Positions 9,596 to 55,594 of a DNA stretch of 64,000 nucleotides are shown piece after piece (position 1 is the stretch's first letter; each line of letters opens with the position of its first letter). This stretch comes from a phage. The notes under the pieces are model-generated. The model was given only the letters and a program-made list of their open reading frames with translations, did not search any database and had not been told where the DNA came from. The stretch is taken from assembly GCA_033759635.1 (NCBI GenBank), contig GCA_033759635.1_4528.1. One strand, 5' to 3'. Position numbers and translations under genes: made by a program.

Positions 9596-9656
9596 CGCTT
9601 TACCCAAGGACGGGTTATAATGGTTTTGAGTTCCAATTCAATCTGAGGAAATAGTT
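9596..9656 (+). promoter_or_regulatory. candidate middle (MotA-type) promoter
   Basis: MotA-box-like cGCTTTA 9596-9602, 13 nt, TATAAT 9616-9621. Confidence 0.4.
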
Positions 9657-10652
9657 ATGAGCATTACATCTGATGCGGTAAAACATGAAATTAACGGTTT
9701 ATGTGCTTCACAGATTAAAGTGTGGTTTAAAGACCATAACGATCGCAGAGCACTTAATTATGAGCAAATTGCTATCCAAGTTCATCAATTACTGACTAGT
9801 AAATTTGATTTTCATATGCCGCCTGAAATCTATACTAATCTGCCGCGAGCACTTATTAAAGCGTGTAAAGGTTATGGAAAATCAATGGCTGATGGAATCT
9901 TCAGCGCGCTGAATAAACTTAACGTTCTGTCGATGATTAACTCTAACAATATCCTGCGTAATCTAGGACGTACTGATTTGTTCGGTCGTGAACAGTGTAA
10001 AATGCCTTTGAAATGGATTGTTGCTCATCTTAACGAGAACCAAACACGTTTTATGGCCGTAACAGCACGTTTACAAATGGGCCTAGATCGTCAGATGAAC
10101 TTTAAAACTCATCCACGTTATTCAGGTTCAACAGACTTTTATAAATGCGAGCTTCAAAAGGTCGCTGGCAAAACTGTCTTAGTAGTTCGTGTAACGTTTG
10201 AAGGACGACGTCAAGGATATTTTGACCTAATCGGCTCTGGTCTTAAACATTGTGGATTTATCGACGAAGTTGATATCAAGCGAGACGGCATTGGATACCG
10301 TATTGGGTATGTTTGTACTCTTAAAGAAGAGATTTCAGGACCAGCTCCAGGACTAAAAGACGTTAGATATAAAGACGAGCTCGTTGAAGAAATAAAAGAA
10401 GTTGAATATGATATCAACCAAGAAGATGCTCTTAAAGACCTTATTGATGAACTGAACCAAGATGTTATTCCTGTTCAGAAATTTGAATCAAAACATGCTG
10501 AGCAAATCAAATACTTTGAAGCTTTGATTAACGAACTTAATGTAACTATTCAACAGACTGACGATGAAATCTCACGATTAGCAGGCTTAAATGGTAAAAA
10601 TAAAACAGAACGAGCTAATCTTATTCAAGTAGTAAAACTTCTTAAGGAATGA
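9657..10652 (+). CDS. hypothetical protein with C-terminal coiled coil (331 aa)
   Basis: ORF track; heptad-like C-terminus; SD GAGGAAA. Confidence 0.6.
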   Translation: MSITSDAVKHEINGLCASQIKVWFKDHNDRRALNYEQIAIQVHQLLTSKFDFHMPPEIYTNLPRALIKACKGYGKSMADGIFSALNKLNVLSMINSNNILRNLGRTDLFGREQCKMPLKWIVAHLNENQTRFMAVTARLQMGLDRQMNFKTHPRYSGSTDFYKCELQKVAGKTVLVVRVTFEGRRQGYFDLIGSGLKHCGFIDEVDIKRDGIGYRIGYVCTLKEEISGPAPGLKDVRYKDELVEEIKEVEYDINQEDALKDLIDELNQDVIPVQKFESKHAEQIKYFEALINELNVTIQQTDDEISRLAGLNGKNKTERANLIQVVKLLKE

Positions 10653-10707
10653 TGTACAACCAAGGATGGTTGGAGTATAATAAATTTTTCAACATGAGGA
10701 ATATAAA
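10652..10707 (+). promoter_or_regulatory. promoter cassette, family B
   Basis: ATGTACAACCAAGGATGGTTGGAGTATAAT; -10 TATAAT 10675-10680. Confidence 0.5.
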
Positions 10708-11667
10708 ATGGCTTTTATTACACGTAGAGAACTTATCAAAGAATTTACCTCGAACGCATATACTCCAGGACCTAATCCTATCCGTATGCCTGTAAAAACT
10801 CCTGAAGAGATTGAGGAAGTCTGTTCGTATTATGGGATTACTTCTCGTATGTTTACTCAATTTGAATGTGTTACTAACACGCCCGTTAAAGAGTTCATTA
10901 AAAATGGTGAGTTCAGCCGTTTACTAGCCAAACAGAAACTTCGTAATTTTTGTATTGGCGGTGAAGGACAATATTTCGCTAAGCAGTTCCGGAATAACCT
11001 TAACAATCTGATGGCCATTGCTTCTCGTATTCGTCCTCAAGCAATTAACATGAAACATTTGAAATATACTTACGATAAGTTGGAAATCATGGTTATCAGT
11101 GAGAACGAGTTCACTCTCACGTATAAACCTAAGAACGATAACGTTGCTCGTGTATTCCACCAAGCGTTAGAAGTTTTAGGTGATAATATCCACCAGATTA
11201 AAGCAATTTATTCTCGTGAGCTTAATATTATCGACCCTATCAAGAATAAGGGCCATATCGCTATCCAGGCTCGTGTATCTATTGGTAAAAAGGTTCCTGC
11301 GCCATGGTGGCACAAAGACTCTGAATACTATCAAAATCTTAAAAAGGAAAATGCAACGTTCGAAGGCAATATCACAGCAACACCAGTCGGTAATGCAGAG
11401 GTTCTAAGCGCATATTCTCCGACACAACCCGGTATGTTTAAAGGTTTGCCAAATGTGTGCAAACTGTCGGCAGTAAAACTAAATGTTTCTAATGACCTTC
11501 TTCCGGCCGAAGATTATCATTACAACCAAATCAAGGCTACTGTAGACCAACTGTCCGTTGAACTTGACAAAGCACAAGCTAAGCTTCGTGATGCTCAAAG
11601 TGTTGTAACGAATCTCCAGTTGCAGTACTCTAAACTTTTTAACGCAATGAATGCGTTAAAATCATAA
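10708..11667 (+). CDS. hypothetical protein with C-terminal coiled coil (319 aa)
   Basis: ORF track; preceded by GTaCAACCAAGGATGGTTGGAGTATAAT cassette. Confidence 0.6.
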   Translation: MAFITRRELIKEFTSNAYTPGPNPIRMPVKTPEEIEEVCSYYGITSRMFTQFECVTNTPVKEFIKNGEFSRLLAKQKLRNFCIGGEGQYFAKQFRNNLNNLMAIASRIRPQAINMKHLKYTYDKLEIMVISENEFTLTYKPKNDNVARVFHQALEVLGDNIHQIKAIYSRELNIIDPIKNKGHIAIQARVSIGKKVPAPWWHKDSEYYQNLKKENATFEGNITATPVGNAEVLSAYSPTQPGMFKGLPNVCKLSAVKLNVSNDLLPAEDYHYNQIKATVDQLSVELDKAQAKLRDAQSVVTNLQLQYSKLFNAMNALKS

Positions 11668-11671
11668 AACG

Positions 11672-11729
11672 GTTTACAACCAAGGATGGTTGGAGTATAA
11701 TGAATCTATCTTAACGAGAGGAAAATATT
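11672..11729 (+). promoter_or_regulatory. promoter cassette, family B
   Basis: GTTTACAACCAAGGATGGTTGGAGTATAAT; -10 at 11695-11700. Confidence 0.55.
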
Positions 11730-12680
11730 ATGACACGTTCACATTACATTGAATACTTTGCCGGTCTTATCGCTAACGTTCATGCCCAGCGTGCTGTTGG
11801 TGCACTAGGATTTGATGTTCCACACCGAGATGTAGTAAGTGGTATTCTTCGCGATTTTGGTACATACACAGGTCAAGAAAATCATATCTGTAAAGATACT
11901 CAGAATGCGTATTCTCATTCATTAGGGACACTGCTTCAATGGTTCAAACGTTCTCGTTTATTATCTTCTACTGTAGCTCGCGATAACATTAAAAACTTTA
12001 TGAAACCGAGCTTTATTAAATCTGTGACATCTAAAACTGATTTGGTTGAATTCACTATTATTAATGATGTTAAAAAGACTCATTTGGCTGATTGGTTATC
12101 TACCATTCCTGAAACTAAATTCGCTGATAAATTTGCTTGTGAATTCAATAACCAAGTGAATATGCTTTTTAAACATTCTCGTAAATTATTCACGGGCGGT
12201 GATGGTCGTACAAATAAAGTTCATGTTAAAGATTGGGTTACTGCAGTATTCAAACCGACCGGTAATGGTAACGCATCATTATCAATTGATATCCAGGTTC
12301 CTTATTACTACTCACGTAATCTCGGTACCATGAAAGCTGAAGAAATTAATAAGCATAACAAAACCGTTCGTTCATTGTCTTATAAACTTATTACATTGTT
12401 AGAGACTATGGATGTTGTTGAAACGTTCGACGAATCCGAAGATAACGGTTCAATGTTATACAGTTCTCGCACCCGAATTAAGCTGAAGAACCCTAACGAG
12501 TATAAACTTAAGACTATTAAAGAACCTAAAGTAGAAAAAGTTGACAACTTGAGCGAAGAACGTGAATATCTCAAATCTCGTCTGAAAGAAGTCGAAGCCC
12601 AGATTAAAGAACAGACTAAATCGTTAAAAGCTCTGAATGCGAAAGCGGACGGTTTACGAAATGCCATTGAGGTGTTATAA
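11730..12680 (+). CDS. hypothetical protein with C-terminal coiled coil (316 aa)
   Basis: ORF track; preceded by GTTTACAACCAAGGATGGTTGGAGTATAAT cassette. Confidence 0.6.
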   Translation: MTRSHYIEYFAGLIANVHAQRAVGALGFDVPHRDVVSGILRDFGTYTGQENHICKDTQNAYSHSLGTLLQWFKRSRLLSSTVARDNIKNFMKPSFIKSVTSKTDLVEFTIINDVKKTHLADWLSTIPETKFADKFACEFNNQVNMLFKHSRKLFTGGDGRTNKVHVKDWVTAVFKPTGNGNASLSIDIQVPYYYSRNLGTMKAEEINKHNKTVRSLSYKLITLLETMDVVETFDESEDNGSMLYSSRTRIKLKNPNEYKLKTIKEPKVEKVDNLSEEREYLKSRLKEVEAQIKEQTKSLKALNAKADGLRNAIEVL

Positions 12681-12985
12681 TGAAACTACGTCTTTTAGAG
12701 GATATTGATATGAGCACTAATCATGGCTTGGTTAAGTTTATTGACGATAGTTCAAAGATTGAATTTGTTCAGCGAGATAAAATCCACGGTGAAGAAGAGT
12801 TCGTTCCTCCAGCATGGAACGAAATAATGAAAATGGTTGAACGACGTGAAAATGCTGCCAAATCAGCAGCAAAACATCCATGCCCGAAATGTGGAACTAT
12901 CCAAGTCCAACTGGTTAACTGGACCACTGATAACTTGAAATTGAAATGCCGTAAATGCTTCCACAAATTTGAGAGAATATTATAA
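12680..12985 (+). CDS. zinc-ribbon protein (101 aa)
   Basis: C-terminal CPKCG..x17..CRKC four-Cys ribbon; TAATG overlap. Confidence 0.5.
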   Translation: MKLRLLEDIDMSTNHGLVKFIDDSSKIEFVQRDKIHGEEEFVPPAWNEIMKMVERRENAAKSAAKHPCPKCGTIQVQLVNWTTDNLKLKCRKCFHKFERIL

Positions 12986-13398
12986 TGAGATATAGCCTTC
13001 GTTGTTTTATCGCAGCTTTAGTTTTTGCCATTATTCCATTCATTTGGAACAGTCAGAATACTTACATGGAAACTAAAGTAATTCCTGTGGAGGTAGTGGA
13101 ATTAATCTCAGGCCAATCTACAGGAAAATATTCTAAATTAGAATTTATTGCAGTCTATAAAGATGAGCAAGGACGAGTTTTTGACAGGCGTGTATCACCG
13201 TCGTTTTATACGCTTCTGAATAAAGGTGATACGATAGCTATAGAAATTCGTGAGATGGATATCAAACAAACTACTAAAGATAACTTGATTTGGTTCTTTG
13301 GTACAGTGTTGTTGGTTTCTATCTGTATCACAGGTTTTATTACATGTATTGTATTTGGCATTGCATATTTAATCGATGAAAGGAAAAATAATGTTTAA
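12985..13398 (+). CDS. hypothetical membrane protein (137 aa)
   Basis: Hydrophobic N- and C-terminal helices. Confidence 0.55.
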   Translation: MRYSLRCFIAALVFAIIPFIWNSQNTYMETKVIPVEVVELISGQSTGKYSKLEFIAVYKDEQGRVFDRRVSPSFYTLLNKGDTIAIEIREMDIKQTTKDNLIWFFGTVLLVSICITGFITCIVFGIAYLIDERKNNV

Positions 13399-53409: not shown

Positions 53410-54087
53410 ATGAGCACTGATGTTATTATAGATTTTGAAACATTCGGCAATACGTCAAAAGCTGCTGTTATTGACCTTGCGGTTATTGCATATAATTCGG
53501 ACCCTGAAGTTGTTGAAACATTTGAAGAACTTGTTCAACGAGGTAAGCGAATTAAATTTAATTTAGCTTCTCAAAAAGGGAAGCGAGTTTTCGCTAAATC
53601 CACTATGAAATGGTGGAAAGAACAATCAGCAGAAGCACGTAAAAACCTGGCCCCGTCTGAAGACGATGTCACTACGCTTGAAGGCATTAAAATCTTTTTA
53701 GATTATTGTCGAGCTAATAAAGTTGACCAATGGAAATCACAGATGTGGTGCCGTGGTATGAGCTTTGACTTCCCGATCTTGGTCGATTTGATTCGTGACC
53801 TCTATCGTGATGAAGGTGTTCTTGAACCAGATATTGATACCGATAAATTAGAACCTGTTAAATTCTGGGCTCAACGTGATATTCGTACGGCAATCGAAGC
53901 TTACTCGTTGACACGAGGATTAAGTATGTGTCCATTACCGATGGGTACGCTAAAAGGATTCGTTGCCCATGATAGTATTCACGATTGTGCTAAAGATATT
54001 TTGATGTTAAAATATGCTCAGCGTTATGCGCTTGGCCTTGAAGATGTCCCTGAGAATCCTGACCCGTTAAGTGTAAAACAGCGATAA
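53410..54087 (+). CDS. dexA: exonuclease A (DEDD family)
   Basis: 225 aa; N-terminal IIDFETFG exonuclease motif; position after dda. Confidence 0.8.
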   Translation: MSTDVIIDFETFGNTSKAAVIDLAVIAYNSDPEVVETFEELVQRGKRIKFNLASQKGKRVFAKSTMKWWKEQSAEARKNLAPSEDDVTTLEGIKIFLDYCRANKVDQWKSQMWCRGMSFDFPILVDLIRDLYRDEGVLEPDIDTDKLEPVKFWAQRDIRTAIEAYSLTRGLSMCPLPMGTLKGFVAHDSIHDCAKDILMLKYAQRYALGLEDVPENPDPLSVKQR

Positions 54088-54092
54088 AAACA

Positions 54093-54152
54093 GTTTACAA
54101 CCAAGGATGGTTGGAGTATAATGAATCTATCTTAACCAAACAGGAAAACATT
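54093..54152 (+). promoter_or_regulatory. promoter cassette, family B
   Basis: GTTTACAACCAAGGATGGTTGGAGTATAAT (TATAAT 54117-54122). Confidence 0.55.
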
Positions 54153-54647
54153 ATGAATATCAATACCACGGCTACTTACATCCTGAAAGATGAAAAACAA
54201 ATCAACTGGTACGGTGCTTCAGTGCGAGCTTATGAAAAGTTTTGTGAAATTTTAGGTGCCACTCAAGGTAATAGTTTCACTATTGTTAACTTCATCAAAC
54301 AAGTTGAAGGCCCTTGGTTATTCTTAGAAATTAAAAATTCATATGGTACAATTTCTACTACCGCCATTCCAAGCACCGACTTTGAACTGTTGATTGAAGA
54401 AGTAGAACCCGTTAAAGATATCTGTATTGATATGGATATCACTTGTATGTACGGTACTCTGATTAAGCCTATTGAGCCTACTGATTTGTTGTGTAAATAT
54501 GTTTCAATTCGACGCCCATTCGCTGGTCCAGTAAATGGATGGGTAACTGACCAATGGATTGAAGACGGTGTTGAACTTCTGAACGTTGTTCATGCAGGTG
54601 ATTTTAGTGTAGTTCCACGTAGTGCTGTGGTTAATATCCTTAATTAA
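54153..54647 (+). CDS. hypothetical protein, member 1 of tandem paralogue family (164 aa)
   Basis: C-terminal GWVTDQWIEDGVELLNVVHAGDFSVVP shared with the next two genes. Confidence 0.55.
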   Translation: MNINTTATYILKDEKQINWYGASVRAYEKFCEILGATQGNSFTIVNFIKQVEGPWLFLEIKNSYGTISTTAIPSTDFELLIEEVEPVKDICIDMDITCMYGTLIKPIEPTDLLCKYVSIRRPFAGPVNGWVTDQWIEDGVELLNVVHAGDFSVVPRSAVVNILN

Positions 54648-54650
54648 TGT

Positions 54651-54709
54651 TGTACATCCAAGGACGGATGGAGTATAATGAATTCAACTTAAACAAAGAG
54701 AGAGAAATT
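54651..54709 (+). promoter_or_regulatory. promoter cassette, family B variant
   Basis: TGTACATCCAAGGACGGATGGAGTATAAT (TATAAT 54674-54679). Confidence 0.5.
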
Positions 54710-55165
54710 ATGATTACTATTGGTGAAATTAAGCGTGTATCATCTGCATCTCGTTCTAAAGCTGCAGGTCGTCTGGTTGAAGTTGTCGGACTTCGTACTA
54801 ATGGTACTGGACGTGTTAAAGAAGTTAAAGTTCGAATCATTCCTAGTTCCGGAAAAACTGAAACTCAGTACGCTTACGTAAGTCCTAAATTCTTGGAAAC
54901 TCATGTGAGCGCTCATTTTGCTTCTACTGAACCTAATGTACAGTTCAAATGGGCCTTGTGTAAAGGTGTTGAATTCCAGACTGATAAAGAATTTGACTTC
55001 ATCGATGAATACGGTTATCCAAGCAAAACTGATACTATGTGCGGCTTCATTAGTGACCAATGGGTTGAAGATGGTGAAAAGTTATACAATATCGTATTCT
55101 TAGGTGACTTCCGAGTTGTTAAAGAATCTGAAATCACTCGCTATGTGTCTCCTCGTAAAGCTTAA
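54710..55165 (+). CDS. hypothetical protein, member 2 of tandem paralogue family (151 aa)
   Basis: SASRSKAAGRLVEV and FISDQWVEDGEKLYNIVFLGDFRVV shared with member 3. Confidence 0.55.
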   Translation: MITIGEIKRVSSASRSKAAGRLVEVVGLRTNGTGRVKEVKVRIIPSSGKTETQYAYVSPKFLETHVSAHFASTEPNVQFKWALCKGVEFQTDKEFDFIDEYGYPSKTDTMCGFISDQWVEDGEKLYNIVFLGDFRVVKESEITRYVSPRKA

Positions 55166-55174
55166 GGAATTATT

Positions 55175-55594
55175 ATGAATATTGTAAATCTCTCTACAGG
55201 TGATTACGTATATGTATCTGTTGCTTCTCGCTCTAAAGTTGCCGGGAAGTTGGTTGAAGTTCTTTCTGTGAGTGATCCGGTTTTTGGTCGTAACCAAGTT
55301 AAAGTTCGTGATGCTAATGGTAATATTGGCTACGTCTCAAGTCAGTTCATTGAACCAGAAGAAAAAGCGTTCAAATGGAAACTGTGCAGGTCTGTTTTAG
55401 TTGTAAAAGACCATGAATTCACTATTGCTGCGGCAACTGATGGAACGCCATGGAAAACTAAGCAAATCGCCGGATTTATTAGCGACCGTTGGGTAGAAGA
55501 TGGTGTTAAGCTTTATAACATCGTTTTCGCTGGTCAGTTCATGGTAGTTCCTGAATTCCAAATTAAAAAATATTGTCCAGCATCTTTTGCATAA
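55175..55594 (+). CDS. hypothetical protein, member 3 of tandem paralogue family (139 aa)
   Basis: VASRSKVAGKLVEV and FISDRWVEDGVKLYNIVFAGQFMVV. Confidence 0.55.
   Translation: MNIVNLSTGDYVYVSVASRSKVAGKLVEVLSVSDPVFGRNQVKVRDANGNIGYVSSQFIEPEEKAFKWKLCRSVLVVKDHEFTIAAATDGTPWKTKQIAGFISDRWVEDGVKLYNIVFAGQFMVVPEFQIKKYCPASFA

Follow-up and report, generated by a model that had tools for sequence, protein, structure and literature searches.

The 64,000-nucleotide window analyzed here (the whole of the analyzed stretch of contig GCA_033759635.1_4528.1, NCBI GenBank assembly GCA_033759635.1) is AT-rich, with a GC content of about 0.37, and carries nearly all of its genes on the plus strand. Three consecutive open reading frames (ORFs) of about 320 residues, starting at positions 9657, 10708, and 11730, form an array within the block that extends from nrdC.11 to nrdC, in the orientation of early transcription. 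An original prediction, made from the letters of the window, had singled out these ORFs, and their coordinates, strand, and lengths of 331, 319, and 316 residues are exact. Each ORF begins with an ATG codon, ahead of which lies a GAGG-type Shine-Dalgarno sequence. The curated record of phage RB69 names the genes, in this order, nrdC.6, nrdC.5, and nrdC.3. The DNA of the region is 99.3% identical to that of Shigella phage Shf125875 and Escherichia phage CCU7, and at the protein level RB69 is 92–96% identical to the region; therefore, we assign the window, from its sequence, to an RB69-like Mosigvirus, a T-even phage. The three genes correspond to hypothetical genes that are already annotated in RB69 and T4. 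Here, we describe the relationship of their products to one another and to the anti-defense protein NrdC.5 of phage T4.

The product of the third gene is 57% identical to T4 NrdC.3 (BLASTP) and 92% identical to its RB69 counterpart. The first gene encodes an RB69-type NrdC.6, with 98% identity to RB69 and about 33% to the T4 type; BLASTP aligns it to T4 NrdC.6 over the N-terminal 127 residues with 38% identity. The nrdC.5-like gene sits as in T4, between nrdC.6 and nrdC.3/4, and its product aligns to T4 NrdC.5 over 308 residues with 26% identity (BLASTP, E = 2e-10). The profile hidden Markov model (HMM) of Pfam family DUF7235 matches the nrdC.5-like product at profile positions 1–307 with 403 bits, compared with 421 bits for T4 NrdC.5 and a gathering score of 30 bits used as the cut-off for membership. 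The protein shares with T4 NrdC.5 the family over its full length, the genomic position, and the head-linker-tail architecture, and differs from it in sequence, with an identity of only 23–26% across comparisons. The DUF7235 HMM has no match at E ≤ 1 in ORFs 9657 and 11730, and in T4 NrdC.3 it finds a tail match only (E = 0.18). These two ORFs encode paralogs outside Pfam's DUF7235, to which they are related at the superfamily level only. PHROGs and Pfam place the three genes in three separate families of unknown function, and NCBIfam has no family for any of the three proteins. The three families occur in 134, 654, and 742 records of the phage collection.

Table 1 Features of the nrdC.6–nrdC.5–nrdC.3 array and its predicted control elements.
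Feature	Position	Strand	Description
Degenerate cassette ahead of the first ORF	9598-9622	+	TTTACC-CAAGGACGGGT-TATAAT; palindrome ACCC/GGGT, loop AAGGAC
nrdC.6-like gene	9657-10652	+	331 residues; PHROG 2257; precomputed Pfam PF26899
Predicted coiled-coil tail, NrdC.6-like	10497-10649	+	residues 281-331, ends ...ERANLIQVVKLLKE
Putative early-promoter cassette	10653-10681	+	TGTACA-N17-TATAAT; spacer palindrome CAACC-AAGGAT-GGTTG; followed by Shine-Dalgarno sequence and ATG of the nrdC.5-like gene
nrdC.5-like gene	10708-11667	+	319 residues; Pfam DUF7235 over full length, E = 9e-121; PHROG 2351
Predicted coiled-coil tail, NrdC.5-like	11506-11664	+	residues 267-319, ends ...SKLFNAMNALKS
Putative early-promoter cassette	11673-11701	+	TTTACA-N17-TATAAT, 11/12 consensus positions; same palindrome; precedes nrdC.3
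nrdC.3 gene	11730-12680	+	316 residues; PHROG 1435; precomputed Pfam PF26897; BLAST cluster includes T4 NrdC.4
Predicted coiled-coil tail, NrdC.3	12552-12677	+	residues 275-316, ends ...GLRNAIEVL

The original prediction spoke of little obvious sequence identity among the three proteins and was right, because pairwise BLASTP gave no significant match (best E = 0.18). Profiles of close homologs, with Neff of about 1.6, were too shallow for a decision on relatedness. The gene block of the window was pooled with 20 loci that come from records of T-even phages or from viral contigs and of which some overlap the same genome; the pool includes Tequatrovirus, Mosigvirus, and Dhakavirus phages and a Yersinia phage, and its ORFs of 200–400 residues were clustered. 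The search for related loci in viral contigs found few, all of them close relatives. BLASTP clustering of the pooled ORFs unites NrdC.3 with NrdC.4. Pairwise HMM comparison, which had been proposed together with the original prediction, revealed the relationship: hhalign matches NrdC.3/4 to NrdC.5 over 161 columns with E = 2.9e-4, at z = 13 over a column-shuffle null. NrdC.6 matches NrdC.3/4 or NrdC.5 separately with E of about 0.07 (z of 3.5–4.2), and the merged NrdC.3/4/5 profile with E = 0.016 (z = 4.7), in a match that includes columns 74–143. The neighboring families NrdC.10 and NrdC.11, which served as controls, give z below 1. The pairwise profile alignments are all collinear, and the same two head motifs and the tail are recovered each time.

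The families are further connected by bridging proteins from distant T4-like phages, which carry a single gene of this kind directly upstream of nrdC.2. The 315-residue bridge from Klebsiella phage PhiKpNIH-6 matches NrdC.5 with a probability of 95% (E = 2e-8, 219 columns) and NrdC.3/4 with a probability of 96% (E = 6e-9, 277 columns). The 338-residue bridge from Enterobacter phage Q7622 matches NrdC.6 with a probability of 92% (E = 5e-7, 180 columns) and NrdC.5 with a probability of 80% (E = 1.5e-5, 200 columns). When a bridge is added to each side, NrdC.6 matches NrdC.3/4/5 with a probability of 95% and E = 6e-8 over 220 columns, compared with E of 0.06–0.7 for the controls. The bridge matches are not confined to the tail but span the globular core too (positions 118–289 of the NrdC.6 HMM and 120–198 of the NrdC.3/4 HMM). 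The two bridges match each other by tblastn with 24% identity over 246 residues (E of about 1e-7), and both are matched by the DUF7235 HMM above the gathering score, via the tail region.

A Foldseek search of BFVD with the predicted model of the NrdC.6-like protein returned 15 matches at E ≤ 1e-3, about 210–380 residues in length, most of them 300–346. The matched proteins are uncharacterized or generically labeled, and wherever an organism is listed, it is a T4-like phage. Two of the matches lie in the genomes of Enterobacter phage IME523 and Pectobacterium phage PM2, in which tblastn finds relatives of the bridging protein at the syntenic position. An exhaustive HMMER search of 1.84 billion proteins with the NrdC.6-like profile retrieved only six clusters. 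Two short HMMER matches limited to the tail (P0061 and P0062) were considered as separate tail modules and rejected, as they are truncated fragments of NrdC.6. An HMM scan downstream of nrdC.11 in Acinetobacter phages (Lazarusvirus) and Slopekvirus detected no member, and Foldseek matches in Acinetobacter phages are unconfirmed.

Profile-profile comparison, the bridging proteins, the matching order of secondary structure elements, and the Foldseek matches agree with one another. Therefore, we conclude that NrdC.3, NrdC.5, and NrdC.6, together with NrdC.4 of T4, are one ancient, strongly diverged superfamily of paralogs. So far, the superfamily has been found only in T4-like phages, with one to four copies per genome. 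T4-type phages carry four copies; Mosigvirus, Dhakavirus, and a Yersinia phage have three each; Kanagawavirus and Marfavirus have a single copy. The fourth T4 gene of similar size, nrdC.4, is absent from the window. Databases keep NrdC.3, NrdC.4, and NrdC.6 of T4 and RB69 as separate families of unknown function, whereas our comparison links them to each other and to NrdC.5. What is new here is that three or four "orphan" families form a single superfamily, which includes a gene proven to act against the Dsr1 defense system and has a common head-linker-tail design.

The annotation of these genes is affected by two peculiarities of the records. GenBank records often call the genes nrdC.3 to nrdC.11 "thioredoxin" or "putative thioredoxin"; no thioredoxin domain is present, and the label has evidently spread from the locus name nrdC.x. 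The nrdC.6 gene of the T4 reference genome (NC_000866 9997–10894, minus strand; 275 residues) looks frameshifted, with the tail lost. The sequence of this conserved tail, ...KAKSEREKLIKIVDLLKS*, can still be read in the "intergenic" DNA that precedes nrdC.5, and NrdC.6 has 295–296 residues in relatives and in another sequenced T4 stock.

The three proteins are predicted to be composed of an α/β head that spans about 220 residues, a disordered linker some 40 residues long, and a C-terminal coiled-coil tail of 45–55 residues. The head has an N-terminal helical lobe containing two shared motifs, "..SRLLS..A..L.NF" and "F.NQ...L...A.RL", followed by a β-sheet, a helix, and a β-hairpin. In the NrdC.6-like protein, the head comprises residues 1–222, the disordered and hypervariable linker residues ~225–277, and the tail two helices, residues 281–308 and 313–330. 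The order of secondary structure elements is identical in the two AlphaFold2 models, those of the NrdC.6-like protein, with a predicted local distance difference test score (pLDDT) of 69, and of NrdC.3, with a poor pLDDT of 53.5. A mixed-family MAFFT alignment placed the shared motifs out of register and was not used for AlphaFold. The three proteins show neither nucleotide-binding nor catalytic motifs, and none of them matched a known enzyme.

The C-terminal heptad-like tails noted in the original prediction are present in each of the proteins. A scan of heptad a and d positions places the top windows within the last 40–55 residues, at 281–309 in NrdC.6, 267–319 in NrdC.5, and 267–307 in NrdC.3, with P ≤ 0.01 relative to 200 shuffled versions of each protein. 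NrdC.3 has one more window above the threshold, in the head helix 200–233. AlphaFold predicts C-terminal helices at residues 281–330 of the NrdC.6-like protein and 275–315 of NrdC.3. In 12 representatives, the tails are collinear across all families and are built of P-[VA]-E..[HY], about 40 heptad residues, and [KR]L..A[ILM]..LK at the C-terminus.

The heads and tails are well conserved between close alleles, with identities of 0.84–0.99 in the head and mostly 0.85–0.98 in the tail. Identity at residues ~221–260 is 0.36–0.57 in NrdC.6 and NrdC.5 and 0.65–0.78 in NrdC.3. This hypervariable, indel-rich segment occupies the equivalent position in all three proteins and corresponds to the disordered stretch that links head and tail in the model. 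Compared with T4, the array genes have a nonsynonymous divergence (dN) of 0.34–0.89, whereas that of the flanking genes is 0.06–0.17; protein divergence is two to nine times higher in the array.

The second and third genes are each preceded by a repeat cassette, as the original prediction had stated of its family B. The exact 27-bp repeat TACAACCAAGGATGGTTGGAGTATAAT occurs at 10655–10681, 11675–11701, and 54096, and a variant with three mismatches occurs at 54653; no copies are expected by chance. The identity between 11670–11716 and the copy at 54091–54137 extends over about 47 bp. The cassettes at 10653 and 11673 fit the published early-promoter consensus of T4 and PST, TTTACW-N17-TAYWAT. 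Judging from this sequence fit, the cassette is a σ70 early promoter of the known promoter-early stem-loop (PeSL) type. The element at 9598–9622 is probably not a standard promoter, because its spacer of just 11 nucleotides between the -35 and -10 boxes is too short. It is homologous to an element upstream of T4 nrdC.7.

The spacer between the -35 and -10 boxes contains a palindrome with a 5–6 bp stem and a constant AAGGA[TC] loop, which is often followed by GGAG. In the window, the palindrome is located at 9603–9616, 10660–10675, 11680–11695, 54101–54116, and 54658–54673. In T4, the element recurs ahead of nrdC.3, nrdC.4, and nrdC.7, with stems that differ from each other yet stay complementary. 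Among seven stem variants, 94% of cells are paired and four of the five pairs change on both sides, which was matched by none of 500 shuffles. The window contains 69 AAGGA[TC] sites; only six are flanked by a stem of 4 bp or more, and five of these six are the cassettes. A scan of the plus strand between the array genes found no terminator, and no T-run follows the palindrome. The palindrome may bind a protein, form an RNA hairpin when transcripts read through it, or act as a joint for recombination.

PeSL cassettes of T4-type phages have been implicated in gene shuffling (Arbiol et al. 2010, PMC2839356; Comeau et al. 2014, PMC4122927). The cassettes of the window resemble them as short repeated intergenic elements with a strong early promoter, a stem-loop, a Shine-Dalgarno sequence, and an ATG codon, situated between non-essential ORFs of a hyperplastic region. 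They are present in four copies and are associated with differences in gene content between relatives. The published stem-loop differs in that it lies upstream of the -35 box and is a terminator, whereas the palindrome of the window lies inside the spacer and lacks a T-run. Between 12680 and 13654, the gene order departs from that of T4: nrdC.4 and nrdC.1 are absent, and an nrdC.7-like membrane-protein gene, found upstream of nrdC.6 in T4, is located at 12985–13398 between nrdC.2 and nrdC. The absence of nrdC.4 and the relocation of nrdC.7, both of which are preceded by cassettes in T4, fit cassette-mediated shuffling.

The remaining cassettes head a second tandem set in the window, after a DexA-like exonuclease gene (53410–54087). 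Its small ORFs, at ~54150–54647, 54710–55165, and 55175–55594, share the C-terminal motif G[FW][IV][ST]D[QR]W[IV]EDG..L[YL]N[IV]V..G.F.VV, and the segment 54091–55594 looks like another cassette-organized array of paralogs. A conserved gene of about 256 residues lies in the nrdC block of T4-like phages of Klebsiella and Enterobacter (L021 6387–7160 and L022 5044–5814, minus strand). Its product ends in ...FKMTV.LEN..TVYG.LPK.VP.D.RG.IEF.ATFE.A.DD.TH.FFKRP and has no coiled-coil tail, and the gene has no counterpart in the window.

The function of the superfamily is indicated by NrdC.5 of T4. Dsr1 is a SIR2-type defense system (NADase) of E. coli ECOR17, and T4 nrdC.5 supplied in trans restores the infection of dsr1+ cells by a deletion phage (Srikant, Guegler and Laub 2022, PMC9391042). 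None of the T4 genes from nrdC.3 to nrdC.6 is essential on laboratory E. coli, and, according to the HIDEN-SEQ supplement, they tolerate transposon insertions at 96–100% of sites. Neighboring counter-defense genes include nrdC.1 (anti-Septu) and 49.2 (anti-OLD). By homology to T4 NrdC.5, the three proteins of the window probably have anti-defense activity. We favor, as the most probable account though with some reserve, that the early nrdC paralogs are counter-defense proteins that act on different targets and are oligomerized by their tails. Since the second and third genes have σ70 early promoter cassettes of their own, their products would be made in the first minutes of infection. The proteins would act as stoichiometric counter-defense factors that are dispensable on laboratory hosts. 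Each variable head would bind and neutralize a different host immunity protein, as proposed for T4 NrdC.5 and the NADase Dsr1. The common tail may oligomerize the proteins and so provide avidity for oligomeric defense complexes. The repertoire of one to four copies per phage would be tuned by duplication, loss, and cassette-mediated exchange.

A parallel in function only is provided by the Bacillus phage protein DSAD1 (PMC10973363, PMC11087589). DSAD1 neutralizes the SIR2-family NADase DSR2 by binding it directly, which is the mechanism that we infer for NrdC.5-type proteins; its target is DSR2, not Dsr1.

More tentatively, we speculate that the genes make up a modular system with multiple specificities, a possibility that we regard as doubtful. 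In such a system, homo-oligomers or mixed oligomers would form via the tail, the heads would be swappable for each immune sensor, and the palindromic cassettes would serve as recombination joints between co-infecting T-even phages. Dsr1 would be recognized by the NrdC.5-type head and other systems by other heads, displayed on the flexible hypervariable linkers.

Several observations weigh against the counter-defense account. The evidence of anti-Dsr1 activity comes from T4 NrdC.5, and the low identity of its counterpart in the window means that the target may differ or be absent. That NrdC.5 overcomes Dsr1 by direct binding is a guess, as the mechanism is unpublished. NrdC.3, NrdC.4, and NrdC.6 are without a reported phenotype, and they had no significant effect in one HIDEN-SEQ fitness comparison. 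The direct link of NrdC.6 to the other families is weak when taken alone (E of 0.016–0.07) and depends on one bridging family and on the model with pLDDT of 69. The AlphaFold model of NrdC.3 was obtained from 29 close homologs and is too poor for a fold search. In fold searches, no solved structure or known anti-defense protein resembled the proteins. Among close Mosigvirus relatives, the whole-gene ratio of nonsynonymous to synonymous substitution rates (dN/dS) is 0.04–0.19, like that of the neighboring genes, which corresponds to ordinary purifying selection.

A signature of positive selection, or of an arms race, was considered and is unsupported by these whole-gene ratios. The original description of the locus as a diversifying, cassette-organized accessory array holds in that the genes are related, are associated with promoter cassettes, and have non-essential orthologs in T4; diversifying selection is not borne out by the ratios. 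In its place, the array has the higher protein divergence between lineages, the hypervariable linker, and the change in copy number.

It is less probable, yet still worth serious attention, that the genes encode paralogous early accessory proteins for host takeover or another non-immune role, in metabolism, the nucleoid, or the envelope, and that the anti-Dsr1 effect is special or indirect. T4 NrdC.5 is the one member with an anti-defense phenotype, purifying selection among close relatives suits a stable cellular target, and many early genes of T4 influence the physiology of the host. However, infection of laboratory E. coli does not require the genes, and several of their neighbors in the block are counter-defense genes. 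Furthermore, copy number and alleles vary strongly among related phages of the same host species, which is more typical of strain-specific targets than of host machinery that is conserved. Within the superfamily, NrdC.3 and NrdC.6 may have a non-immune accessory role.

It is very unlikely that the proteins take part in phage DNA metabolism or in the assembly of virions, for instance as coiled-coil scaffolds or recombination mediators, with a functional reason for their location beside the nrd genes and endonuclease VII. The array is flanked by nrdC.10 and nrdC.11 (ATPase, nucleotidyltransferase) and by nrdC, gene 49, and nrdD, and scaffolding and SMC-like proteins often contain long coiled coils. 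However, the T4 orthologs tolerate transposon insertions nearly throughout in the HIDEN-SEQ data described above, and the putative promoters are of the early σ70 type, not late. The family is absent or has a single copy in T4-like genera that retain all core replication and structural genes, and the proteins lack nucleotide-binding and catalytic motifs as well as enzyme matches. The least probable explanation, three unrelated proteins of similar size that were juxtaposed by chance and acquired a generic coiled-coil tail by convergence, would agree with the lack of pairwise BLASTP matches, with the split into three families in Pfam and PHROGs, and with the ability of coiled coils to give spurious profile matches, but it is already largely refuted by profile matches that cover the globular core, collinear alignments with the same two head motifs, bridge probabilities of 92–96% against controls with E above 0.05, the similar order of secondary structure elements, and the Foldseek matches that connect the bridging family with the model of the NrdC.6-like protein.

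Among virulent phages, the T-even group has been studied best, yet about half of its early genes have no assigned function. With the recognition of a superfamily that has a proven anti-Dsr1 member, three or four orphan genes per genome become candidates for counter-defense, and their divergent heads are predicted to carry different specificities. The combination of a conserved tail and a hypervariable linker suggests a reusable inhibitor design. If the three proteins are indeed counter-defense factors, this could explain differences in host range between therapeutic T4-like phages.

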